Position numbers and translations under genes: made by a program
IMG/VR virus record: IMGVR_UViG_2579778631_000016
Length of the DNA: 9,750 nt
Reading direction: 5' to 3' (one strand)
Source of the DNA: a virus
Lineage: Duplodnaviria; Heunggongvirae; Uroviricota; Caudoviricetes
The notes under the pieces: generated by a model
Databases searched by the model: none
The model's input: only the letters and a program-made list of their open reading frames with translations
What the model was told of the DNA's origin: nothing
Shown here: positions 1 through 9,750 of the stretch, piece by piece
How the letters are laid out: every line of letters begins with the position of its first letter
Numbering within the stretch: position 1 is the first letter of the stretch

Positions 1-282
1 TTACCGCCGCAACCGCTCCGGCTTCTTCCAGTGGTACGTTATTTTTTCTTTCTCCCGATACAGTTCAACGCGGCGATTGTAGGCCAGCATTTCCAGAACG
101 CGGATCCGTATGTCGCGCATATCAACATCATTAAGCTGGATACCATCACGGCGCATCACCTCAGCAACAATACGCACATAATTTTCAGCGGTCACGCTGT
201 CCGGCTGTGTGGCCTGTTCGTCATGCTGCTGGCTGATTCCGGTAACGCGGCGGATTAATCCCAGTAGTTCGGCTTCTGTCAT
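1..282 (-). CDS. hypothetical protein, 93 aa (MTEAELLGLIRRVTG...)
   Basis: The 1..480(-) ORF was trimmed to the internal ATG at 280-282, which is preceded by a GGGGG Shine-Dalgarno; stop TAA at 1-3. The longer N-terminal extension runs through the cos-like sequence and does not look protein-like. No family recognised. Confidence 0.45.
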   Translation of the reverse strand: MTEAELLGLIRRVTGISQQHDEQATQPDSVTAENYVRIVAEVMRRDGIQLNDVDMRDIRIRVLEMLAYNRRVELYREKEKITYHWKKPERLRR

Positions 283-312
283 TGTGCCCCCATCGCTCTG
301 ATAGTCTGGTGT

Positions 313-392
313 CGTCGGGTCCTTCCTGGAATTATGGCCCGTTACGGGGCGGCGACCTCGCGCGTTTTCACTATTTATGAAAATTTTTCGGG
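313..392 (+). other. lambda-type cohesive-end site, copy A (cosQ-like + cosN)
   Basis: The + strand reads cgtcgggtccttcctggaattatggcccgttacg / GGGCGGCGACCT / cgcgcgttttcactatttatgaaaatttttcgg. The 12-mer at 347-358 and its flanks match the lambda genome left end and concatemer junction as I recall them (...cgacgggtcctttccggtgatccgacaggttacg|GGGCGGCGACCTCGCGGGTTTTCGCTATTTATGAAAATTTTCCGG) at nearly every position. Confidence 0.7.
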
Positions 393-395
393 ATC

Positions 396-494
396 CATGT
401 CCGGTTTCTCTGCAAGTTAACCATATGAAAAATATAAAAACATGCTTTCCATGAACCGGACATGCGCAAAAAACAGACACTAAAACCGGACATC
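396..494 (+). repeat. three copies of GAAACCGGACAT(G/C), one inverted; candidate cosB-type small-terminase binding sites
   Basis: catgtccggtttc at 396-408 (inverted), tgaaccggacatg at 452-464, aaaccggacatc at 483-494. Spacing is about 60 and 30 bp, close to whole helical turns, and the array sits immediately downstream of cosN copy A where lambda has the R3/R2/R1 sites of cosB. Confidence 0.4.
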
Positions 495-561
495 GAACCA
501 GTTAACCGAAAGTGTGCACAAATCACATGCATTGCTGCGAGTGATTAACAAGTTATCGGCT

Positions 562-996
562 TTACTGTTCTGTATCGGCTGATTGCTCCATGCTGGCACG
601 GCGAACGCTTACGGCATGACGCCACCCAGCCAGAAAGCCAGCCATTTTATTTCGTGCCTTGCTCACATCTTCCGGTGAATAGCCGTAAATCTGCAAACCT
701 TCATCAAATCGATGTTCTGTTTCTTCACTGGAGTACTCGTCACGCTCAGATGAAAGCAGCCTGGCAAACATAATTTTTTCCAGCGCACTGGTTTCTACGT
801 GATATCTGATGGCCTCAAGACGGCTTTTACCTGAAGACCAAAGCAATGTATGCCCGATGTGATAACCGCCAGACTTTCCGCGATCCGCATTAAGATACGG
901 CATCCCCTGTTTGGTCCATGCGCGAATAGTGGTTCTGTTAACCTTGAAATGTTCAGCTATTTCCTGCTGACTTACAAAACAAGCTTTATCAATCAT
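562..996 (-). CDS. Nu1-like terminase small subunit / packaging-specificity protein, 144 aa
   Basis: N-terminus VSQQEIAEHFKVNRTTIRAWTKQGMPYL aligns with the lambda Nu1 winged-HTH region KKQLADIFGASIRTIQNWQEQGMPVL. ATG at 994-996 has an AAGGTAA Shine-Dalgarno and lies 89 nt downstream of cosN copy B on the same strand. No terminase large subunit gene follows. Confidence 0.75.
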   Translation of the reverse strand: MIDKACFVSQQEIAEHFKVNRTTIRAWTKQGMPYLNADRGKSGGYHIGHTLLWSSGKSRLEAIRYHVETSALEKIMFARLLSSERDEYSSEETEHRFDEGLQIYGYSPEDVSKARNKMAGFLAGWRHAVSVRRASMEQSADTEQ

Positions 997-1057
997 AATG
1001 TTACCTTAACTGCATGGTTAAATATTAATCAAGTGGTGGTGGTGTCACCTTCACGGA

Positions 1058-1133
1058 AAAACGTCATAAATAGCGAAAACCCGCGAGGTCGCCGCCCCGT
1101 AACGGGTCCATATGCCGGAAAGGACCCGTAAAA
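1058..1133 (-). other. lambda-type cohesive-end site, copy B (cosQ-like + cosN + one R3-like element)
   Basis: The minus strand reads tttacgggtcctttccggcatatggacccgttacg / GGGCGGCGACCT / cgcgggttttcgctatttatgacgtttttccgtgaagg; the cohesive-end 12-mer is at 1086-1097. This matches the recalled lambda cosQ/cosN almost exactly, and ACGTTTTTCCG resembles the lambda R-site core CGTTTCC. Confidence 0.7.
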
Positions 1134-1152
1134 AAAGCCGGATTTCTCCGGC
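1130..1152 (-). terminator. rho-independent terminator ending the capsid operon
   Basis: Hairpin gccgga-tttc-tccggc (1137-1152) is followed on the minus strand by a 7-nt U tract (A tract 1130-1136 on +), 7 nt after the stop of the 137-aa gene. Confidence 0.6.
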
Positions 1153-1158
1153 CTTGTC

Positions 1159-1572
1159 TCAGATGGTTTTCAGTATGCGCTCGATGTCGCCATCATCGCC
1201 CGGGTTTCTGCCGTCGTATGCCATGCCAGCTGAAACGGCTTGCGGGCTGTGCATGTCCATAAAGTTTTCAAAGGCTGCGGTAAGCTCCGGCGCAACCTTC
1301 TGGCGTTCCTGCTCTATGGTCATGCTAAGGATGCTTTTAGCCGTACCAACATCGATACAAGGCACGTTTGCCATTGCACGTAACAGCGGCTGATAGTCGT
1401 TATGCTCATGAAGCGCCATAATCGCATCAGCGCGCGGCTTGTCCTGCTCTTCCAGTTTGTTGAGTTGATATACGGCCTCGTAGGTTGATAAACCTCTGTC
1501 AGCCATTGCCCGCGCTTCGGCTTTAAATTTACTCGCCAGCGGTAGCGTCATGATGCTTTCATTCGTTGCCAT
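1159..1572 (-). CDS. hypothetical head-module protein, 137 aa
   Basis: ATG at 1570-1572 with an AGGGGGAA Shine-Dalgarno, 12 nt after the stop of the gpD-like gene and followed by a terminator. Function unknown; its position suggests an accessory head, scaffold or size-determination protein. Confidence 0.6.
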   Translation of the reverse strand: MATNESIMTLPLASKFKAEARAMADRGLSTYEAVYQLNKLEEQDKPRADAIMALHEHNDYQPLLRAMANVPCIDVGTAKSILSMTIEQERQKVAPELTAAFENFMDMHSPQAVSAGMAYDGRNPGDDGDIERILKTI

Positions 1573-1584
1573 CGTTCCCCCTGC

Positions 1585-1920
1585 TTATCGGGCCAGCGGC
1601 TGAACGGATACGCCAGAACCCGCAAAGGCGGCGCATTTTTTCGCATCGGTGTCGACGCTCTCGGGCCAGTTCACGGCGGCGATATTAAAGATCCCCGTCT
1701 TGTAGCACTGTGCTGATTTCTGCTTTGACGTGTCCACGGGGTACGAAGTCAGATAAACAGCCTTTCCGGACGCCTGACCATCCCACGGCTTAAACTCGCC
1801 ATTGTCCGCCAGCATCAGCGGGGTAAATTCCTGAATGACGCCAGCATCAGCGGCAAAATGTACCAGCGTCGTGGATACCTGCTGACTGCCTGCAAATAAC
1901 TCAATGTATGGAGTGTTCAT
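1585..1920 (-). CDS. head decoration protein, lambda gpD-like, 111 aa
   Basis: TPLMLADNGEFKPWDG and YKTGIFNIAAVNWPES...KKCAAFAGSGVSV match lambda gpD (TPLMLDTSSRKLVAWDG; YKSGTFRYEDVLWPEA...KKRTAFAGTAISIV). GGGGGA Shine-Dalgarno; directly follows the capsid gene. Confidence 0.8.
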   Translation of the reverse strand: MNTPYIELFAGSQQVSTTLVHFAADAGVIQEFTPLMLADNGEFKPWDGQASGKAVYLTSYPVDTSKQKSAQCYKTGIFNIAAVNWPESVDTDAKKCAAFAGSGVSVQPLAR

Positions 1921-1931
1921 AGAATCCCCCG

Positions 1932-2987
1932 TTAACCAATTTTGACGGTAACAAATTTGCGAATGTCTGCCGGCACCGGCTGCGGTGCGCTGTGCGTCTG
2001 CACGTACTCAATCGCCGGATCGCCGTCCTCAATCCAGTTTTTCGGGTAGTACATGTTTTGCGTTGCGCCCGTTCTTACCGCTTCCTGATCCATAATCGCA
2101 CCATAAGCAACCAGCCCTTTATTGTTGGTGTTGCCCAAGACCAGCAAATCAGGCTCAAGGAAATGTTTTTCGGTGCCGTCGCTGTCGGCGTATTTGCCGG
2201 AATAGACGATAAGGGCAATATCGCCCAGATAGCCTTTAAAGCTCACCACTTCGCCCAGGTTTTTACAGGCCAGTTCTGCGGCGGATTCTGAACCACGGGA
2301 AAGATCGTACAGTTCGCGGAATTTTTTAAAGCTGCGTAACGTGCGCCATACCTCAGCGCCCATAATCATGACGTTTGCGGGGCAATTGCCCTGATCCGCA
2401 TAAAGCTCGATATCATAGATTGGATCGTGGGTTTCTTTGTCCTGCTCGGACCATTTACGGCCTTTGGCCTGCTCTATGATGTTGTTTTCCGGCATCTTCC
2501 AGTCGATTTCATAGCGTTCTATGCCTTCGCCCTCAATGATGTTTTTTCCGGTCGTTACCGCATTTACCGCCAGCCATTCAACACGCGCTTTAATAGCGTT
2601 TACCTGGCGGCGCATGTTGCCAGTAATCAGGCGCATACGGCGATAGGTTGGGTCGTTAAGCTGTGCCGGATCTTCTCCAGCCATGCGCATGATGGTTTTT
2701 GTTGGATCGATTTCGTGCTTTGGCTTCATGTAGCCAGGTTTAATCGTGCTGGTTTCGTACCCTTTATCGCGCTGTACCTGGCTACCAACCATAGGCGAGC
2801 AAAACGCTGACATAGTGACTTCTTCGGTGTCCAGGTTATCCAGCATGATGTTTTGGGTGTTGAATGTCGCTACTTTCTGGAAAAACAGCGTGGTAAACAG
2901 CGGACTAAATTTAAATTCCGCAATATCCCCGCGATTCAGGTACGCAAAAAGCTGGTGAGTGTTAAGTGCCGTTGCTTTGCCTGCCAT
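1932..2987 (-). CDS. major capsid protein, lambda gpE family, 351 aa
   Basis: Several blocks match lambda gpE: EFKFSPLFTTLFF / KFKFDPLFLRLFF; PGYMKPKHEIDP / PGYVKPKHEVNP; EDPAQLNDPTYRRMRLITGNMR / EDPQNLADPAYRRRRIIMQNMR; GDIALIVYSGKY / GDVAIVVYSGQY; YPKNWIEDGDPA / YPKNWVTTGDPA. Start overlaps the upstream stop (TAATG). Confidence 0.9.
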   Translation of the reverse strand: MAGKATALNTHQLFAYLNRGDIAEFKFSPLFTTLFFQKVATFNTQNIMLDNLDTEEVTMSAFCSPMVGSQVQRDKGYETSTIKPGYMKPKHEIDPTKTIMRMAGEDPAQLNDPTYRRMRLITGNMRRQVNAIKARVEWLAVNAVTTGKNIIEGEGIERYEIDWKMPENNIIEQAKGRKWSEQDKETHDPIYDIELYADQGNCPANVMIMGAEVWRTLRSFKKFRELYDLSRGSESAAELACKNLGEVVSFKGYLGDIALIVYSGKYADSDGTEKHFLEPDLLVLGNTNNKGLVAYGAIMDQEAVRTGATQNMYYPKNWIEDGDPAIEYVQTHSAPQPVPADIRKFVTVKIG

Positions 2988-3193
2988 TATTCACCCCCAT
3001 AATTTTTATGCATCCCAAGCGCCGCAAGTAAATAAGAGCGTACAAGTGAACCTATCGACGGCTCCGGCGTCATCAGCGGATCCAGTCCAGCCGCCACGCC
3101 AGCCTCATAGTTTTTTTTGTGGCGCTGCTTGAGCACCTCCACGATTTCGGGGCTTATGTACACCGAAACACCGCCTTTTTTCTCTTCAGCCAT
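2987..3193 (-). CDS. hypothetical protein, 68 aa, first gene of capsid operon
   Basis: ATG at 3191-3193 with a GAGGAA Shine-Dalgarno; its stop overlaps the capsid ATG, indicating translational coupling. No family recognised. Confidence 0.55.
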   Translation of the reverse strand: MAEEKKGGVSVYISPEIVEVLKQRHKKNYEAGVAAGLDPLMTPEPSIGSLVRSYLLAALGMHKNYGGE

Positions 3194-3249
3194 AGTAAGA
3201 AATTCCTCTTCGACTTAAAAAATCATAACTGGATGTTCATCCAGCTCTG

Positions 3250-3277
3250 ATTATAATCATGATTGCATTTTGTGCAA
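3250..3277 (-). promoter_or_regulatory. sigma70-like promoter for the capsid operon (TTGCAC, 16 bp spacer, TATAAT)
   Basis: On the minus strand: -35 TTGCAC (3272-3277), 16-nt spacer, -10 TATAAT (3250-3255), about 55 nt upstream of the ATG at 3193. The -10 lies inside the perfect palindrome GATTATAATC and is flanked by TTGCA/TGCAA dyads. Confidence 0.45.
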
Positions 3278-3357
3278 TGATATTGAGTTGTGTTGCAAAT
3301 TGTGAAATGATTATCCCGATCATGTGTGTCAGTGCACCAAAAAGCCTCATATGCAAA

Positions 3358-3395
3358 AGCCCGATAAGCCACCTCTGACCTTATCGGGCTTTTTT
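3358..3395 (+). terminator. rho-independent terminator on the + strand
   Basis: agcccgataag-(11 nt loop)-cttatcgggct followed by TTTTT (3391-3395). No annotated + strand gene ends here, so it would terminate a short + strand transcript starting near the capsid promoter. Confidence 0.45.
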
Positions 3396-3519
3396 ATCTG
3401 CCTGCAAAGATGTCGAACAAAAATTAACCATAACCATCATCTTTTTTGCATCAAAACAATTAAAAACAATAAATTACGCTCATGATGATGATGACGATAA
3501 AATCACAAAAATGCGCTTT

Positions 3520-3570
3520 TTTCCGCGCCTCCCGCCCCGTGTTCAGGCCCACCCCGCCAGGAGGACCCGT
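3520..3570 (-). other. degenerate cos-like relic, copy C
   Basis: The minus strand reads acgggtcctcctggcggggtgggcctgaacacggggcgggaggcgcgg: a cosQ-like ACGGGTCCT followed by a decayed version of ttacgGGGCGGCGACCTcgcgg. Confidence 0.4.
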
Positions 3571-3592
3571 AAAAAAGCCGGATTGCTCCGGC
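3571..3592 (-). terminator. rho-independent terminator after the SSB gene
   Basis: Hairpin gccgga-ttgc-tccggc with an adjacent 6-nt U tract on the minus strand (A tract 3571-3576 on +). It is nearly identical to the terminator at 1130-1152. Confidence 0.55.
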
Positions 3593-3608
3593 TTCTGTCA
3601 CTCGTCGC

Positions 3609-4031
3609 TTAAAACGGTATGTTATCCCCGTACGGATCATCATTCCCCGCCTGTTGTTTTGCCCTGTTCAGCGCGTCAGTAGCCTGCCCCTGTTGACCTT
3701 TTTTGCTGCCCGGTCGCGCCGTTCTGGCACTGATTACACTGTCTGCGATAACCTGCCAGCCCTGCCGCGTTTCGCCGTTCTGGCCTGTCCACTGGCTCAC
3801 CTGCATATTACCCGCCACGCTCAGGAGTTCGCCTTTGTGGTGTTTTGCCAGTGCGTCGGCCTGTCTGCCAAACGCCAGGACAGATAACCACATCGTCGCC
3901 GTTCCGTCATCTGCCTGGCTGCATGGCAGGGGAACCGCCATACTCGCCATCGCCATTTGTGTCCCTTTGCTGGTGGTCTTTAACTGCGGGTCAGCCACCA
4001 GCCGCCCGCAAGCCGCTATCTGTGCTGTCAT
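3609..4031 (-). CDS. ssb: single-stranded DNA-binding protein (SSB), 140 aa
   Basis: OB-fold-like core (WLSVLAFGRQADALAKHHKGELLSVAGNMQVSQWTGQNGETRQGWQVIA) and an acidic C-terminal tail ending ...DDPYGDNIPF, as in E. coli SSB (...DFDDDIPF). Start overlaps the upstream stop (ATGA). Confidence 0.8.
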   Translation of the reverse strand: MTAQIAACGRLVADPQLKTTSKGTQMAMASMAVPLPCSQADDGTATMWLSVLAFGRQADALAKHHKGELLSVAGNMQVSQWTGQNGETRQGWQVIADSVISARTARPGSKKGQQGQATDALNRAKQQAGNDDPYGDNIPF

Positions 4032-4285
4032 GCTGTCTGCTCTCCGGTTTTAACGTTGATGGTTGTCACCTGTTCCGCTTCGGCAATCTCCCGTTCTGTC
4101 AGCGTGGCAAAGTTTGCTGCCGCCGTGGTCATGAATGCGCTTATCAGGTCGGGATGTGCTTTCGCGTATCCTTCCCCCGTGTTGCGGTCGATGATTTTTA
4201 TCGCCACTCTCAGCCAGTGCTCTGTAAGGTCAATGGCGCGGTTATGCTGCTTCTTCTGATTATTAAGTTTTCCTGATGTGCGCAT
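4028..4285 (-). CDS. hypothetical protein, 85 aa, first gene after the origin
   Basis: ATG at 4283-4285 with a GAGGGGG Shine-Dalgarno (spacer slightly long); translationally coupled to ssb. No family recognised. Confidence 0.5.
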   Translation of the reverse strand: MRTSGKLNNQKKQHNRAIDLTEHWLRVAIKIIDRNTGEGYAKAHPDLISAFMTTAAANFATLTEREIAEAEQVTTINVKTGEQTA

Positions 4286-4332
4286 TTTTATTTTTACCCC
4301 CTCGTTTAAAAAGTTTTGAGTTGTGCCTCCCC

Positions 4333-4560
4333 TTGTCTACCTTATCTACCTTACTGGCTCTCATGCCAGTAATGGCGCGGCTTTCAGCGGGGTAGAGTGC
4401 TTTTATCCACTATCTACCCCGTATCTACCTCCCTGTCTGATTCAGGTAAAATCAGGTAGAGAGGGTAGATAGTAGGTAGACAGTGAAAAAAGGCTGTCTA
4501 CCTAAGTTAATATACTGAATTGAATGTATTTTTCTTTACTCAGGTAGACAGGGTAGACAG
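4333..4560. repeat. iteron array (about 11 copies of GGTAGA(CAG) / (CTG)TCTACC) with an AT-rich spacer; putative replication origin
   Basis: GGTAGA at 4391, 4455, 4464, 4475, 4543, 4552 and TCTACC at 4336, 4345, 4413, 4424, 4497; the full 9-mer GGTAGACAG occurs three times. An AT-rich stretch at 4500-4540 could be an unwinding element. Lies immediately downstream of the primase/helicase gene, as in SaPI/PICI origins and P4 ori/crr. Confidence 0.7.
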
Positions 4561-4573
4561 CCATTGCAAAAAA

Positions 4574-6322
4574 TTATAAAAACGCGTCGCAATCGTCTGT
4601 TGTTATTGCGTTAGTCTGCGTTACTCCCTTAACTTTCCGCGTAATATATTCATGTCCGTAAACTTTCGCGGCTGGCTTCATAGCCTTGCCAAAGTCATTT
4701 ACGTTTAGCGGTTTGCTCCTGCCTGCGTATGCCATAAACGCCAGATAGACGCGGTAAAGGCTGTTCCTGGTCGTGTACTTCACTGAATCGCCACCGCCCC
4801 CCATCATCAGGCCGCGCGCTTCCTCCAGAAAATTCAGGAACTGGCAAAACTCAATAACCGGATCCGTTTGCTGCTTTATCGCCAGTGCTTCATCACCGTC
4901 ACGCTGTTCAATGAGTAAAGCCCGTGCCTTTTCAGGGGCGGAAAAGTTCGCCAGTAATCGGCGGATAATCACAGGGATTTCAGCCGCAATCTTTTCCGGT
5001 AGCTCCCTGTCTTTGTCGGCCTCACTGACGATATTGTCGAAACGGAAAATCACGCGACGACGTGCCACACCTCCGGCCCGTTCGGTGAATATCATCGGGT
5101 TGTTGTTGGTCGCCAGCACCACCGCCCTGATTACCGCCGTGAAACGCTTTTCATATTTCGGGTTAACTTCCACGGGGTCGCCGCCTGTGATTTTCTTGAT
5201 GCCCGTTCCTTCGCCTGTATATTTCGGCTGGTCAGCCAGGACGATAAGACGACTCCCGACAACCTGCGCACGTCCACCAGCATCATCAAGCGATGTCATT
5301 TCAGCGCTTACCGTGTTCTGTTTCCCTGCCAGAAGGCTGGCTATGTGTGTGAATGTACTTTTACCGCTCCCGCCGTCTCCGGTGGCCTCAATAAACATCT
5401 GCCAGTCGTACCGGTTCGCCATAATCATGTACAGCGCGGCACATATACGCATCATCTTGCTCGGGTCTTTTCCGGCTGCGTGCTCAAGCCATTTATGAAA
5501 GTTTGGCGCGTTATCGCGGATGTTCTCCCCGGGTGCTGGTGGCGTGTACTCAATGCCGTTGTGCGTGGTGATCCAGTTCTCCGGCGTGTGCGGGGAAAAT
5601 TCCCCCGTTTTCAGGTCAAGCGCACCATTGGCGAACGGCAGCAAATCGCCGGACGGCTCGCCCATTGGTTCGGCAATAACTTTTAACGCTTCCACGGCGT
5701 TATTGATTACGCGCTTGCTGAAAGTGGCCCTGTGCTCTGAATAGATCGCCACCATTTCGCGGCTCAGCTCCATTGTGCTGACCGGACACCATACCCCGCC
5801 GCGCCATACGTGAACGATTTCACTTTCAGGATGCACACAAACGCCATCAAAGCGCTCGGCAAGCAGCTGCGCGCGCTCACTGTCTGCCATTTGTGCCAGT
5901 TGCGTATTTTTCTGCTCCGGCATGGTAAGCCCTGCGGCAATATTTTCACGCTCAGCATTCAGATAGCGCCGCCAGTTTTCACACTTCTGGGCGTGCATTC
6001 CTTCGGGGTAAAAATTTGCGTCCTGAATATCTGCCGCCGCCAGCTTCTGACCAATCTTTTTGGTCTCCACCAAATCCAGTTCTCCGGCCTGGTACAGCCT
6101 TACGCGTTTTTTTCCATCAGGAACAATTTGCAGTGCATCAAGTTCGGCAAGCTGATTTGGCCCAAGCCACACAGGAGGCACATTATCGCCGGATGCGGGG
6201 CCGTCCTGCTCCTGCCACTGTTTTGCATGTGCCCACGCATCACTACCCGCGAAAATAATCACCTCTGTGTCTTTGTGTTTTATTCCGCGTGGCTGTTTTT
6301 TTACGTTCGGTGCCAGTTTCAT
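4574..6322 (-). CDS. P4-family primase / SF3 helicase replication initiator, 582 aa
   Basis: Walker A motif GDGGSGKST, a downstream LIVLADQP Walker B-like segment and a C-terminal region typical of phage/plasmid primase P4-family (D5_N-like) proteins. Start overlaps the stop of the upstream small ORF (ATGA). Confidence 0.9.
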   Translation of the reverse strand: MKLAPNVKKQPRGIKHKDTEVIIFAGSDAWAHAKQWQEQDGPASGDNVPPVWLGPNQLAELDALQIVPDGKKRVRLYQAGELDLVETKKIGQKLAAADIQDANFYPEGMHAQKCENWRRYLNAERENIAAGLTMPEQKNTQLAQMADSERAQLLAERFDGVCVHPESEIVHVWRGGVWCPVSTMELSREMVAIYSEHRATFSKRVINNAVEALKVIAEPMGEPSGDLLPFANGALDLKTGEFSPHTPENWITTHNGIEYTPPAPGENIRDNAPNFHKWLEHAAGKDPSKMMRICAALYMIMANRYDWQMFIEATGDGGSGKSTFTHIASLLAGKQNTVSAEMTSLDDAGGRAQVVGSRLIVLADQPKYTGEGTGIKKITGGDPVEVNPKYEKRFTAVIRAVVLATNNNPMIFTERAGGVARRRVIFRFDNIVSEADKDRELPEKIAAEIPVIIRRLLANFSAPEKARALLIEQRDGDEALAIKQQTDPVIEFCQFLNFLEEARGLMMGGGGDSVKYTTRNSLYRVYLAFMAYAGRSKPLNVNDFGKAMKPAAKVYGHEYITRKVKGVTQTNAITTDDCDAFL

Positions 6323-6618
6323 TTTTTACCCCTGAATACGTTAAGCATCTTTTTTATTTCCTGAATATTGGCGCGTGCTTTCTCCCTGCTGGTTGGAACG
6401 TTACGCGGTACAGCCTGCACCAGAGAAAAATCACGGTCGAACTGATAAACAGGCATCACGCAATCATATTCGTAGCCTTCACGACGGTAGGTTACGCGCC
6501 GTTCCTCCACGCCCTTAATCATTACCGTGCCGCCGTACTGGTCGCGGTAAATATCACCGCGCATGAATTTAGTGCGAGTTTTGCCACTGGCAGTTAAGCC
6601 AGAATATTTAAGTTTCAT
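6319..6618 (-). CDS. hypothetical protein, 99 aa
   Basis: Translationally coupled to the primase gene; family not recognised. Confidence 0.6.
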   Translation of the reverse strand: MKLKYSGLTASGKTRTKFMRGDIYRDQYGGTVMIKGVEERRVTYRREGYEYDCVMPVYQFDRDFSLVQAVPRNVPTSREKARANIQEIKKMLNVFRGKK

Positions 6619-6623
6619 TATTT

Positions 6624-6851
6624 TTATTCTCCGGTATGGGGCGAGTTATTATTCTCGTGAATTGCCATCACTGTATTTAATTCATTAATAACAGGCGTTA
6701 ATAGCGTACGCACGGCAGAAAACATCATTGAATCAGATTCATCGCCACTTTCCGGCACATCAATTAACTTAAGTAGTAATGCGTCCATTTCCTTTGCGCG
6801 GATTAATGCGTTTTCAGAATGAACAAGAACATCAAAGGGTATTTTATGCAT
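6624..6851 (-). CDS. hypothetical protein, 75 aa
   Basis: ATG at 6849-6851 overlaps the stop of the upstream 67-aa ORF (ATGCATAA); acidic, no family recognised. Confidence 0.55.
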   Translation of the reverse strand: MHKIPFDVLVHSENALIRAKEMDALLLKLIDVPESGDESDSMMFSAVRTLLTPVINELNTVMAIHENNNSPHTGE

Positions 6852-7047
6852 GACTCACCCCCTGGCGAATACGGGCAGCGAATACCATCACGCAGCCATC
6901 AGGAGATTGCTGACGCGCTTCCTGTTCGCTGGTGGCCTCAATGGTAATCACGCGCGGTTGTGCCGTGCTCAGGGCGATAAAACGCCAGATGTATTTATTC
7001 AGGTTGTGCGAGTCCCGCCCTTTCGGGTGTGTGGTATGATTTAACAT
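6844..7047 (-). CDS. hypothetical protein, 67 aa, first gene of leftward replication operon
   Basis: Internal ATG at 7045-7047 of the long 6844..7791(-) ORF, preceded by GAGGTAG at good spacing. The remainder of the 315-aa ORF is judged spurious. Confidence 0.5.
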   Translation of the reverse strand: MLNHTTHPKGRDSHNLNKYIWRFIALSTAQPRVITIEATSEQEARQQSPDGCVMVFAARIRQGVSHA

Positions 7048-7141
7048 AGCTACCTCGATACTCTTTCTATCGTTGGTGGTTAGAAGCCCGTTGGTGTTGG
7101 TAGCACCTGCGGGCTTTGTCTTTTCATCGATTACCTCAACA

Positions 7142-7225
7142 AAGGTGTCAGCCACTATACTAGTAACAGGTGTCAGCCACGTCAATAGTGTTTTTCCATT
7201 TTCTTGTGTGTATACTGTCAGCCAC
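7142..7225 (+). promoter_or_regulatory. three direct repeats of TGTCAGCCAC in the divergent promoter region (putative operator)
   Basis: aaaggtgtcagccac (7142-7155), acaggtgtcagccac (7166-7180) and tactgtcagccac (7213-7225). TATACT hexamers at 7156-7161 and 7211-7216 abut the repeats. Located just upstream of the RHH gene start at 7247. Confidence 0.5.
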
Positions 7226-7246
7226 CTAATAACAAGGAAATCAGAT

Positions 7247-7426
7247 ATGGCAACGAAAGCAGTTAATGGAAAATCCAAAAAACTTGAGGCACGAGTCCCC
7301 CATGCAATAGCTGACGCTGTAGAAAATTTAAAGGAAGAAGGCGAAAGCACTGGGCAATTTATCGTTTCGGCACTTGAAGGCGAGATCAAACGCCGCCAGC
7401 GCCGCAAGGCCAAAGAACCAGAGTAA
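7247..7426 (+). CDS. ribbon-helix-helix (Arc/CopG-like) DNA-binding protein, 59 aa
   Basis: ATG at 7247 with an AAGGAAA Shine-Dalgarno. KKLEARVPHAIADAVENLKEEGESTGQFIVSALEGEI fits a beta-strand / helix / loop / helix RHH pattern, and the basic tail is RRQRRKAK. The long N-terminal extension in the ORF track was rejected. Confidence 0.65.
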   Translation: MATKAVNGKSKKLEARVPHAIADAVENLKEEGESTGQFIVSALEGEIKRRQRRKAKEPE

Positions 7427-7483
7427 TCACCATCAGCGCCGTGGTGTAAGGTATTACGGCGCATTGCTATGCAGGACAACACA

Positions 7484-7657
7484 ATGACCGATAAAGAATT
7501 GACCAAAACATTATCACCGGCACGGAAAAGACGGCGCAGAAAGATAGAGCATGAATCAGAAAGATTCGCGCCATGTGCTTTTGCCCTTGAGCAATTCCTT
7601 AAAGAGTACAGGGAAAAGCGCTCATTGCAGGTATGGCAACGAACTGAACCAGACTGA
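7484..7657 (+). CDS. hypothetical small basic protein, about 57 aa
   Basis: Second ATG (7484) has an AGGA Shine-Dalgarno whereas the first (7469) does not. Contains ARKRRRRK. Followed by a terminator. Start is uncertain. Confidence 0.4.
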   Translation: MTDKELTKTLSPARKRRRRKIEHESERFAPCAFALEQFLKEYREKRSLQVWQRTEPD

Positions 7658-7752
7658 TTGCATTGCCCACCAGCCTGATAGCGGCTATCATCCCCGTGCT
7701 TATGTTTGGGATCATATACACATAAGGCGCAGCGGGTTAATTGTTCAGAAAG

Positions 7753-7779
7753 GCGGCTCCATATCGGGGCCGCTTTTTT
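7753..7779 (+). terminator. rho-independent terminator
   Basis: gcggctcc-atatc-ggggccgc followed by TTTTTT (7774-7779); lies between the convergent RHH operon and alpA. Confidence 0.55.
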
Positions 7780-7805
7780 CGTGTTTGTCATATCTGTGAT
7801 ACCCG

Positions 7806-8012
7806 TTAAGCAGCCGTTCCGCGTGCTTCCTGTTCGCGTTCTTTCTGCCAGGCCAACACATCATCCTCATACCATCCGCGACGGCGTAAACCAACGCGAA
7901 AACCCTGCGGAAATTCTCCGGCGTTGATCATGCTTTGCAGCGTGCTGTCTGCCTTGATGTGGATAATTTTTTTTACTTCCTGGCGAAAGATAATTTTTCT
8001 GATTGCTTCCAT
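7806..8012 (-). CDS. alpA: AlpA-family phage transcriptional regulator / excisionase-like protein, 68 aa
   Basis: KADSTLQSMINAGEFPQGFRVGLRRRGWYEDDVLAWQ matches the AlpA-family HTH pattern (...TIYRLIxxGxFPKPxKLGxRxxxWxExEVxxW). AAGGTAA Shine-Dalgarno; sits beside a P4-type integrase as in CP4-57. Confidence 0.8.
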   Translation of the reverse strand: MEAIRKIIFRQEVKKIIHIKADSTLQSMINAGEFPQGFRVGLRRRGWYEDDVLAWQKEREQEARGTAA

Positions 8013-8088
8013 CGTGATTTACCTTGTGAATCCGGTGTATTCCGGTGACAAATACGGTAAATCATCGGATATGGGTAAAAACAGTTCC

Positions 8089-8119
8089 CACCGTTTTTAA
8101 ACGGTATACACCGTTTTTT
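8089..8119. promoter_or_regulatory. dyad ACCGTTT-tt-AAACGGT plus a second ACCGTTTTTT copy upstream of alpA
   Basis: caccgttttt at 8089-8098 and 8109-8118, with the palindrome ACCGTTTTTAAACGGT at 8090-8105, in the alpA 5' region. Candidate regulator binding site. Confidence 0.3.
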
Positions 8120-8145
8120 ATATTGATGATTTGAAATGGAATTAT

Positions 8146-8168
8146 AAAAAAAGCGGCATTTCTGCCGC
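8146..8168 (-). terminator. rho-independent terminator after the 83-aa ORF
   Basis: gcggca-tttc-tgccgc followed on the minus strand by a 7-nt U tract (A tract 8146-8152 on +). Confidence 0.5.
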
Positions 8169-8179
8169 TTCCAGGATTG

Positions 8180-8431
8180 TTACCGCCATTTTTTGGGCCT
8201 GCCTCCGATCTTCATAGATGCCGGACGTACGACCTTATCAATACTTACCGCCAGATTTCTGGAAGCGCCACGGGATACCAGAAAATCTACTACCTGTTTT
8301 TTTGATGGGGCCGTCGTTCTGTCCTCCGGATCGTAGGTTGACCAAAATTCATGCTGAACCATCAGGGCCAGTTGCAGCCCGTCGCAATTGCATCTGATAT
8401 TTTTTTGCATCTTAACGGTTTCATGTTTCAC
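8180..8431 (-). CDS. hypothetical protein, about 76-83 aa, between int and alpA
   Basis: ORF with a GTG at 8429-8431 or an ATG at 8408-8410; both have weak ribosome-binding sites. Followed by a terminator. No family recognised. Confidence 0.4.
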   Translation of the reverse strand: MKHETVKMQKNIRCNCDGLQLALMVQHEFWSTYDPEDRTTAPSKKQVVDFLVSRGASRNLAVSIDKVVRPASMKIGGRPKKWR

Positions 8432-8508
8432 GGCCTTGTCGTTAAATTTGATGCAATTATACGACGGTTTTACATGGTTTTCGTAGTTTTTACTGGTTTT
8501 CTGTACAG

Positions 8509-9750
8509 CTACACGGCTCGGATACCCCTTTTACCACTGGCGAGGGTTACGCCCGTCGCCGCAGCCTCGACAAATTCGCCCCACCAGCGCATCAGCACGA
8601 TGCGTTTTTCTATGTAGTTGCTCCGGTTGTATGCCCGTCTAACTTCGTTGGTGTCGACGTGGGCAAGTGCCGCCTCTATTACGTCCGGCTCGAATCCTTC
8701 CTCGTTCGCTGCTGTGCTGAATATGGCGCGTAATCCATGAGACACCAGCACGCCAGCGAATCCCATACGCCGCAATGCTGCGTTAGCTGTCTGGCTGTTC
8801 ATCGGCTGCTGTGGGTCTTTCAGACTTGGGAAAACGTAATTGCGGTGGTGGCTGATTGGTTTCATGGCCTCCAGCACCGCCATAGCCTGACCGGAAAGCG
8901 GGATAACGTGATCCCTGCGCATCTTCATGCGTCCGGCAGGTATCGTCCATTGCTTCGCGTCCAGGTTGATTTCATCCCACCGCGTTGATGACGCTTCGGC
9001 GGGACGGGTTACGGTCAGTAACTGCCATTCAATCAGTAATCTGGTCTGCCGTTCTGTTGCCGATACTGATAAAGCCTGCATAAGCTCCGGCAGCTGTTCG
9101 GGGCGGATTGTTGGCATATGTTTTTTTACAGGTGAGGGAAACGCCTTACGCACATTCATAGCCGGATTGGCATCAATCAGCCCACTGTTGGCGGCGTAAT
9201 CCATTACCTCATTAACGCGCTGTAAAACCCGCTTGAGTGTTTCCAGGTTGCCGCGCTCCTTGATGGGGGTAAGCACTTCAACGAACCTTCGGGCGGTGAG
9301 GGTATCTATTGGCGTGTTGCCGATGAACGGGAATACATATTTATCCAGCGAACGCCAGATGTCTTTAATCGTGTTGGGGGCCAGATTCTGGCTGATTTTC
9401 ACCTGGTACCATGCCGCCGCCACATTTTCGAACGTGTTCCCTTGTCTTCGGGCCTCTGTCTCTCTTTTTTGCCTCTCGTGGTCCTGCGGGTCAGTTCCGG
9501 CACTGATTAACGTCCTGTACTCGCTACGGCGTTTTCTGGCATCAGCCAGGGAAACATCTTCAAGCGATCCAAAACTCAGCAATATTCTTTTTTTGTCCGA
9601 TGGTCGGTAGTAGGAAAATCTCCAGAGTTTTGATCCAGACGGTTTGACCAGGAGAAAAAGCCCTCCGCCGTCCTGCAGGGTGTACTCCTTTTGCGCTGGT
9701 CTGGCTGCTTTGATCTGCACTGTGGTTAATGGGTGTGTTTTTCTCGCCAT
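8509..9750 (-). CDS. int: tyrosine integrase, P4 / CP4-57 IntA type, 413 aa
   Basis: N-terminus MARKTHPLTTVQIKAARP...GGGLFLLVKPSGSKLWRFSYYRP is typical of P4-like integrases. The C-terminal catalytic region has HGLRAIFST and AYNRSNYIEKR, the tyrosine motif. ATG sits at the window edge (9748-9750). Confidence 0.95.
   Translation of the reverse strand: MARKTHPLTTVQIKAARPAQKEYTLQDGGGLFLLVKPSGSKLWRFSYYRPSDKKRILLSFGSLEDVSLADARKRRSEYRTLISAGTDPQDHERQKRETEARRQGNTFENVAAAWYQVKISQNLAPNTIKDIWRSLDKYVFPFIGNTPIDTLTARRFVEVLTPIKERGNLETLKRVLQRVNEVMDYAANSGLIDANPAMNVRKAFPSPVKKHMPTIRPEQLPELMQALSVSATERQTRLLIEWQLLTVTRPAEASSTRWDEINLDAKQWTIPAGRMKMRRDHVIPLSGQAMAVLEAMKPISHHRNYVFPSLKDPQQPMNSQTANAALRRMGFAGVLVSHGLRAIFSTAANEEGFEPDVIEAALAHVDTNEVRRAYNRSNYIEKRIVLMRWWGEFVEAAATGVTLASGKRGIRAV

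Follow-up and report, generated by a model that had tools for sequence, protein, structure and literature searches.

The DNA analysed here, called the window, is the whole 9,750-nucleotide stretch of the virus record IMGVR_UViG_2579778631_000016, and with high confidence we see in it the coding core of a phage-inducible chromosomal island (PICI), of the classical Gram-negative EcCICFT073 type. A tyrosine integrase gene of the P4 family, int (8509..9750; Pfam Arm-DNA-bind_3, Phage_int_M and Phage_integrase), lies at one end and is followed by a regulator, a replication module, lambda-like capsid genes and a packaging module; unless stated otherwise, genes are on the minus strand. The elements that a first-pass annotation of the window had listed (int-alpA, a small regulator, a helicase, an iteron origin, a single-stranded DNA-binding protein (SSB), capsid and decoration genes and cos elements) were all found at sensible coordinates. 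The compact one-strand organisation that it described is also present, with only two small genes on the plus strand and with overlaps or gaps of at most 12 nt at the icd/orf75, DUF4222/pri, orf85/ssb, orf68/capsid, capsid/decoration and decoration/orf137 junctions. The window ends exactly at the int start codon and at the last stop codon, and the attachment (att) sites therefore lie outside it.

The packaging module is centred on rppA (562..996), which encodes a redirecting-phage-packaging protein of 144 residues. The protein and its gene are 100% identical to RppA of EcCICFT073, also described as 144 residues (PMC6739421). In the PDB it matches RppC (6hlk, E = 5e-31), and the match to lambda Nu1 is weak (E ~0.1). 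RppA is a winged helix-turn-helix (wHTH) mimic of the DNA-binding domain of the small terminase subunit (TerS). The earlier label "Nu1-like" thus captures a faint resemblance, but the protein is an Rpp and not a terminase subunit. Two cos sites flank the gene, cos1 (1051..1128, minus strand; cosN at 1086-1097) and cos2 (316..393, plus strand; cosN at 347-358). Both carry the exact lambda cosN 12-mer GGGCGGCGACCT, within about 40 nt of cosQ/cosN context common to the two sites and lambda. The sites form a 78-nt inverted repeat (I1, 82% complementary), so that cos2 points opposite to cos1, as in EcCICFT073. Compared with EcCICFT073 cos1, the window cos1 differs by one flanking base; its cosB side diverges from lambda, and a PICI-specific cosB is located between cosN and the start of rppA. 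Of the two cos sites in EcCICFT073, cos1 is important and cos2 dispensable (PMC6092414), and the function of cos1 has been shown (PMC6092414, PMC6739421).

Three genes with lambda relatives precede cos1. The major capsid homologue (1932..2987; c1499 in EcCICFT073; Pfam Phage_cap_E, 1e-49) is 43% identical to lambda gpE from end to end, and the decoration protein (1585..1920; c1500; Pfam HDPD, 6e-18) is 36% identical to gpD. The third gene (1159..1572; c1501) encodes a protein of 137 residues that matches PHROG 1999 at 6e-65; no function is given for c1501 in the 2018 supplement of the EcCICFT073 description. Residues 117-200 of lambda Nu3, its C-terminal 84 residues, match the same PHROG at 2.7e-26. 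A direct BLASTP comparison of the 137-residue protein with Nu3 is weak (E = 0.05), and a PDB sequence search with it gave a chance-level match only. Through PHROG 1999, which both match, the 137-residue protein is linked as a homologue to the Nu3 scaffolding protein in its C-terminal part; the island therefore has a counterpart of each lambda protein that forms the shell (E, D and Nu3). The three genes stand in the reverse of the lambda gene order. Pfam and PHROG scans located no portal, protease or connector gene beside them. No phage gene is more than 47% identical to the capsid gene (best of 407 hits in 50,697 phage records), which argues that the latter was not recently captured from a phage, and the E, D and Nu3-like genes form a clade well apart from phage genes. 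Strong purifying selection is indicated by their dN/dS values between copies of the island: 0.14-0.15 (E), 0.08 (D) and 0.23 (Nu3-like gene). All genes of the window are intact, with dN/dS of 0.08-0.3 where it could be computed.

The replication initiator Pri-rep (4574..6322; D5_N, DUF5906 and Pox_D5) combines a superfamily 3 (SF3) helicase with origin binding and is 41% identical to residues 326-756 of P4 alpha. The primase domain of alpha (residues 1-325) has no counterpart in it. Of the "primase/SF3 helicase" proposed earlier, the homology to the helicase and C-terminal part of alpha stands, whereas the word primase is unverified because the P4-type N-terminal primase domain is absent. Residues 1-~140 of the protein contain no Pfam domain and match only PHROG 2850. 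The origin (288 bp, 4286..4573) contains nine exact copies of the iteron GGTAGAYA; 0.29 are expected and none of 200 shuffles reached nine. The copies are arranged in two sets, in both orientations, around an AT-rich stretch. The origin is ~98% identical to that of EcCICFT073, which was shown experimentally to work with its own pri-rep (PMC6092414). The sole Rfam match in the window, mir-3927 at 4398-4495, is spurious (28.7 bits against a gathering score of 90) and arises from the inverted iterons at the origin. Pri-rep is preceded by a DUF4222 protein (6319..6618; Pfam DUF4222, 5e-24), and the origin is followed by an 85-residue conserved PICI protein (4028..4285; PHROG 1231, 1e-47) and by ssb (3609..4031; Pfam SSB, 7e-16).

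The integrase is 34% identical to P4 Int over the full length. Downstream of int lies alpA (7806..8012), encoding an alpA-type wHTH regulator/excisionase that is 31% identical to P4 ORF88 and matches PHROG 66 (5.5e-7) and PHROG 2790 (3e-6), "excisionase and transcriptional regulator". At 99.99% identity the window recurs in the E. coli assembly GCA_001265925.1 and in other E. coli contigs. In these, the island is located between yejM-tRNA-Pro(ggg) and the yejO autotransporter/narP, and the target of the integrase is the tRNA-Pro(ggg)/yejM site. Within the window ARAGORN detected no tRNA; the target tRNA-Pro is just outside. In the GCA_001265925.1 locus the int start is 218 bp from tRNA-Pro, and a degenerate copy of the tRNA 3' end (CTCTCGTGCGACCAAA versus CTCTCGTGCCGACCAAA) marks the far boundary ~570 bp past the last open reading frame (ORF). 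From tRNA-Pro to this copy the whole element is ~10.6 kb. A 26-nt direct repeat containing TAGTTATACG flanks it; the TAGTTATACG repeats correspond to the "att core" that Fillol-Salom et al. 2018 list in Table S1 for PICIs at yejM-luxR (PMC6092414). At least 80% of the window is present in 66 of 5426 complete E. coli genomes (megablast), including Nissle 1917 and ATCC 25922, and the same ~10-11 kb architecture recurs at several att sites.

The closest characterised relative is EcCICFT073 of strain CFT073, the model Gram-negative PICI (Fillol-Salom et al. 2018, 2019). From the icd-like gene onwards, as far as the last ORF, the two have their genes in the same order. Their DNA is 94.5% identical over window 1-3395 (68-residue ORF to last ORF) and 90.5% identical over 3708-6649 (SSB to DUF4222); window 3396-3707 has no similarity to EcCICFT073. 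Protein identity is 94-96% for the homologues of capsid, decoration and c1501, and the two cos sites agree in sequence and in being inverted relative to each other. Identity is 92.5% for the Icd-like protein, 91% for Pri-rep, 86% for the DUF4222 protein, 95% for the 85-residue protein and 88% for the last ORF, with SSB more diverged (69%). In contrast, Int and AlpA of EcCICFT073 are unrelated to those of the window (24% identity), and EcCICFT073 sits at ycfD-phoQ rather than at tRNA-Pro/yejM. It also has the accessory gene perC, which the window lacks, and four small ORFs in the icd-DUF4222 interval, where the window has one 75-residue ORF (6624..6851; PHROG 2196). This ORF, which overlaps the icd stop by 8 nt and occupies a variable slot, is unrelated to the EcCICFT073 ORF in the same slot. 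The 415-bp AT-rich non-coding gap at 3194..3608 (GC 0.42) is an accessory slot, empty in the window but occupied by perC in EcCICFT073 and in the E. coli AST198 island.

The int-alpA end has a different relative. Int and AlpA are 100% identical in amino acid sequence to those of the island in Nissle 1917. Nissle 1917 and ATCC 25922 give the same coverage, identity and bit score against the window (megablast), and the ATCC 25922 match (CP009072.1, 106836-117525) falls within the published interval of EcCIATCC25922 (106749-118031), catalogued in 2018 at yejM-luxR (Table S1 of PMC6092414). The EcCIATCC25922/Nissle island uses the same tRNA-Pro-adjacent integration site as the window island and has the capsid, decoration and replication modules in the same order at ~92% DNA identity. 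It differs by extra small ORFs after icd and by the gene in the rppA slot, which in the Nissle island (6539-7081 of its locus) encodes an unrelated 180-residue protein annotated "terminase small subunit" (14.5% identity). Packaging modules have evidently been swapped between otherwise similar PICIs, since this slot holds an unrelated gene. The window island itself is by these comparisons a recombinant of two catalogued PICI types, because its Int and AlpA are of the Nissle type at 100% identity and its other modules are EcCICFT073-like: an int-alpA end of the EcCIATCC25922/Nissle type is joined to replication, capsid and rppA-cos modules of the EcCICFT073 type.

We judged the class component by component against published family definitions, including the PICI model of SatelliteFinder (PMC10085698). 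That model has five core components, namely integrase, regulator, primase-replicase, capsid morphogenesis and small terminase; PICIs with all five present are "Type A", 97% of which are in E. coli (PMC10085698). In the window the integrase is at one end with nearly all genes co-oriented, with the same two-ORF exception as in EcCICFT073, and an alpA-type regulator follows downstream of int. The pri-rep gene has its iteron origin directly 3', with two iteron sets around an AT-rich stretch, as in the pri-rep/ori definition for Gram-negative PICIs (PMC6092414). The size of ~10.6 kb is within the PICI range (~8-15 kb), and the att site is PICI-specific. The packaging hijack module consists of an Rpp and a cos with helper-type cosN and island-specific cosB. 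The capsid-morphogenesis homologue is a core component of the SatelliteFinder PICI model (PMC10085698), and of 29 reference Gram-negative PICIs, 21 have a capsid gene (PMC10111431). No ORF of the window matched the tail, holin, portal or head-tail connector families, which that model forbids, in Pfam, PHROGs or NCBIfam.

Three observations weigh against the assignment to the EcCICFT073-type PICIs. The AlpA protein scores 17.6 bits with the Pfam AlpA model, under the 21-bit cut-off; the replication protein is without a recognisable primase domain; and Gram-negative PICIs are described as strictly unidirectional, which the counter-strand unit at 7247-7657 does not fit, although EcCICFT073 has the same unit. 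Nothing in the window sequence contradicts the assignment. EcCICFT073-type PICIs are E. coli phage satellites already characterised, and the window element is an ordinary member: its architecture, type of helper, Rpp-TerS packaging on cos1, origin and integration site are all published for the family.

Experiments on induction, transfer and helper interference have been reported for EcCICFT073 only (PMC6092414, PMC6739421). In that island the helper phage activates alpA, which is needed for induction and transfer (PMC6092414), and the activator role switched on by the helper is the one ascribed to AlpA in the EcCICFT073-type family (PMC6092414). Lambda, phi80 and a resident lambdoid prophage each transfer EcCICFT073 by the cos mechanism, and its packaged DNA is phage-sized (PMC6092414). 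The Rpp-TerS heterocomplex and the cosB specificity of cos1 have been described, by which packaging of the island is promoted and that of the phage is blocked (PMC6739421). Since RppA, cos1 and the origin of the window island are identical or nearly so to those of EcCICFT073, we infer the same mechanism for it, and induction, high-frequency helper-dependent transfer and interference with the helper would be expected. Infection by a lambdoid helper, or its induction, would turn alpA on, and AlpA would drive unidirectional transcription of the island and Int-mediated excision. Pri-rep, acting with the island SSB on the iteron origin directly downstream of its gene, would produce concatemers. RppA would heterodimerise with the helper TerS (Nu1-type), and the hybrid DNA-binding domain would no longer recognise the phage cosB and would instead recognise the island cosB beside the lambda-type cosN of cos1. 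Because of this change of specificity, the large terminase subunit (TerL) of the helper would cut and package island concatemers into full-size helper heads fitted with helper tails, and packaging of the phage would be blocked. By arithmetic, a lambda head would be filled by about four units of 10.6 kb each (42 kb); with three (32 kb) the DNA would be under the lower packaging limit of lambda.

The satellite nature of the element, proposed at the outset, is upheld: its genes for integration and replication have homologues in P4, and the head and cos elements are lambda-type. It had been suggested from this mixture that the element may represent a poorly characterised lineage, formed by an independent fusion of P4-type integration/replication and lambda-type head/cos modules. 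The homologies of Int, AlpA and the helicase to P4, and of E, D and cos to lambda, are what such a fusion would leave, but the described EcCICFT073-type PICIs are defined by this very architecture, and it is no peculiarity of the window element. With gene-for-gene synteny to EcCICFT073, 100% identity of RppA, essentially identical cos1 and origin, Int and AlpA identical to those of the Nissle island, an att site and Int type already catalogued, and the prevalence in E. coli genomes given above, the proposal of a new lineage is refuted. What the window holds is a routine member of a described family with identical gene content, which is the outcome that the first-pass annotation itself had named as speaking against its proposal. 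That annotation was right in expecting a lambdoid rather than a P2-like helper, as lambda and phi80 mobilise EcCICFT073 (PMC6092414). The likeness to P4 is real and extends from Int (34%), AlpA/ORF88 (31%) and the helicase/origin-binding part of alpha (41%) to an Icd-like gene, integration at a tRNA site, a size of ~10-11 kb and a short-iteron origin, and on these grounds a P4-like satellite depending on a P2-like helper might be proposed. We give this almost no credence, as general ORF scans (Pfam, PHROGs and NCBIfam) found no homologue of psu, delta, sid or epsilon, the primase domain of alpha is absent, both the cosN 12-mer and cosQ of the cos sites are those of lambda where P4 has a P2/P4-type cos, and RppA targets a lambda-type TerS (PMC6739421). 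EcCICFT073-type PICIs exploit the helper by retargeting TerS; capsid size reduction is not reported for them.

The capsid genes raise two further alternatives. A capsid-forming PICI (cf-PICI) assembles small capsids of its own and depends on the helper for tails only. The window encodes major capsid, decoration and scaffold-like proteins, all under purifying selection, and cf-PICIs are known to resemble classical PICIs in their left halves; the cf-PICI EcCIEDL933 shares with the window the type of int-alpA-rep left half, alpA-dependent induction as predicted for the window, and a capsid gene of its own. The cf-PICIs differ in having portal, protease, head-tail connectors, HNH, TerS, TerL and island-sized capsids. 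None of those genes is present in the window, where every ORF in the 9.75 kb is accounted for and portal, maturation protease, head-tail connector/adaptor, TerL and HNH are lacking; the Nu3-like scaffold fragment is also without a protease domain. We therefore regard a cf-PICI as highly improbable. Alternatively, lambda-like E, D and Nu3-like genes and cos sites in the absence of other head and tail genes could be what is left of a decayed lambdoid prophage, a cryptic prophage and not a mobile satellite, and the related copy in AST198 has internal stops in int and the capsid gene. A remnant would hardly recur with the same ~10-11 kb architecture at several att sites or retain intact genes with dN/dS of 0.08-0.3; neither the distance of the capsid gene from every phage record nor the absence of cI/cro, N/Q, lysis and tail remnants from the Pfam, PHROG and NCBIfam scans fits such an origin, and the archetype EcCICFT073 is experimentally mobile (PMC6092414). 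The probability left to this explanation is minimal. Returning to the EcCICFT073-type PICI, a further parallel is SaPIbov5, likewise a satellite with the cos type of its helper and a homologue of the helper major capsid protein (Ccm), an analogy drawn in PMC6092414. SaPIbov5 has a Gram-positive host and is unrelated in sequence, and its Ccm makes small capsids and blocks the phage.

For a recognised family the discovery value of the locus is low, and automated tools already class such elements as PICIs. The practical gain is the correct annotation, in which the "Nu1-like" gene is rppA and not a terminase subunit gene, together with the observation that PICI modules recombine, an EcCIATCC25922-type int-alpA end being joined to an EcCICFT073-type rppA-cos end. 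The sharper question is why the islands keep a private E, D and Nu3-like shell trio that has so far shown no laboratory phenotype. The one kind of test published, single deletions of E or D in EcCICFT073, left interference and transfer unchanged with lambda or resident prophages as helper, so the capsid homologue is dispensable for both, and no small-capsid DNA was seen (PMC6092414). A limited literature search found no later functional study of PICI capsid genes. We entertain, as an idea that is more probably wrong than right, that the trio is not vestigial and, when the natural helper is present, co-assembles with, or replaces, the shell proteins of the helper on the helper portal and protease. 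The idea is compatible with three genes that are intact, closely linked, strongly selected and distant from phage capsid genes. If so, there would be island-specific capsids, possibly of altered size, and classical PICIs would be a functional intermediate towards cf-PICIs.

The two plus-strand genes form a unit (7247..7657) that is the sole exception to the minus-strand gene order, and the AT skew changes sign there. The first gene (7247-7426) encodes a small DNA-binding-like protein of the YlcI/YnfO family (NCBIfam YlcI_YnfO_N, 4e-17) and the second (7469-7657) a 62-residue protein; each has its own PHROG family, the matches of the unit being PHROG 949 and 21027. A strong terminator with a 14-bp stem (7747-7779) closes the unit. 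The AlphaFold model of the YlcI/YnfO protein consists of an extended segment and two helices (pLDDT, the predicted local distance difference test score, is 86). Foldseek gave no significant match of the model in the PDB (best E = 6), and a sequence search of the PDB gave no match. A homologue is named CopG-like ribbon-helix-helix (RHH) in UniRef. The "RHH switch" of the first-pass annotation is thus borne out as a small regulator gene of the YlcI/YnfO family, for which an RHH fold is plausible; the RHH label is not established and stays at plausible because no fold match in the PDB is significant. Between this unit and the divergent icd-pri operon lies a control region (7048..7246) with a tandem 22-nt repeat (7143-7164 and 7168-7189; family D17) and a promoter-like site at 7185-7157 on the minus strand. 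From its sequence this region is a putative operator, and the YlcI/YnfO unit and the tandem repeats might together act as a control switch. As Gram-negative PICIs have been described as unidirectional, the counter-transcribed unit may be a control element not yet described.

The first gene of the replication operon encodes an Icd-like protein of 67 residues (6844..7047; NCBIfam phage_ICD_like, 1.4e-18; PHROG 6196, 4e-44). A longer frame of 315 codons (6844-7791, minus strand) is open antisense to the YlcI/YnfO and 62-residue ORFs and across the plus-strand terminator at 7747-7779, and the equivalent c1487 in the original CFT073 annotation is a 428-residue "icd-like" gene. We rejected the 315-residue ORF as a real long Icd-like gene in favour of the 67-residue one, because only its last ~48 residues match the Icd model, because the remainder is antisense to plus-strand ORFs that have their own PHROG families and a terminator, and because the AT skew flips there too.

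The remaining genes are small. An ORF of 76 residues between int and alpA (8180..8410), called as a gene in the GCA_001265925.1 locus, has no match in Pfam, PHROG, NCBIfam or PADLOC. A conserved ORF of 68 residues (2987..3193; PHROG 3255, 8.5e-46) precedes the capsid gene, and its stop overlaps the capsid gene start. The last ORF of the window (1..282) encodes a conserved protein of 93 residues (PHROG 1561, 2.5e-56). A PADLOC scan of the small ORFs revealed no known defence system, and the window as a whole showed no recognisable accessory, virulence or defence gene. Scanned in full against Rfam (E <= 0.1), it gave no P4-type CI/C4 RNA. Terminator-like hairpins follow the 76-residue ORF (8149-8172, consensus scan) and the 137-residue gene (1131-1152), and a hairpin followed by a T-run is located after ssb (3571-3592; GCCGGAGCAATCCGGCTTTTTT, repeat family D1). 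Matches in the consensus scans for promoters and terminators showed no enrichment over shuffles and therefore carry little weight.

Some copies of the island are decaying, as the related copy in AST198 has internal stops annotated in the capsid gene (7930-8985) and the integrase gene (15410-16651). In the GCA_001265925.1 locus, three TAACCCGTTGAT(A/T)TTTTC-like repeats are located between the last ORF and attR (16320-16490). The attR copy of the tRNA-Pro 3' end (16886-16905) is one base short; this loss fits the damage to tRNA fragments reported at PICI attR sites (PMC10111431).

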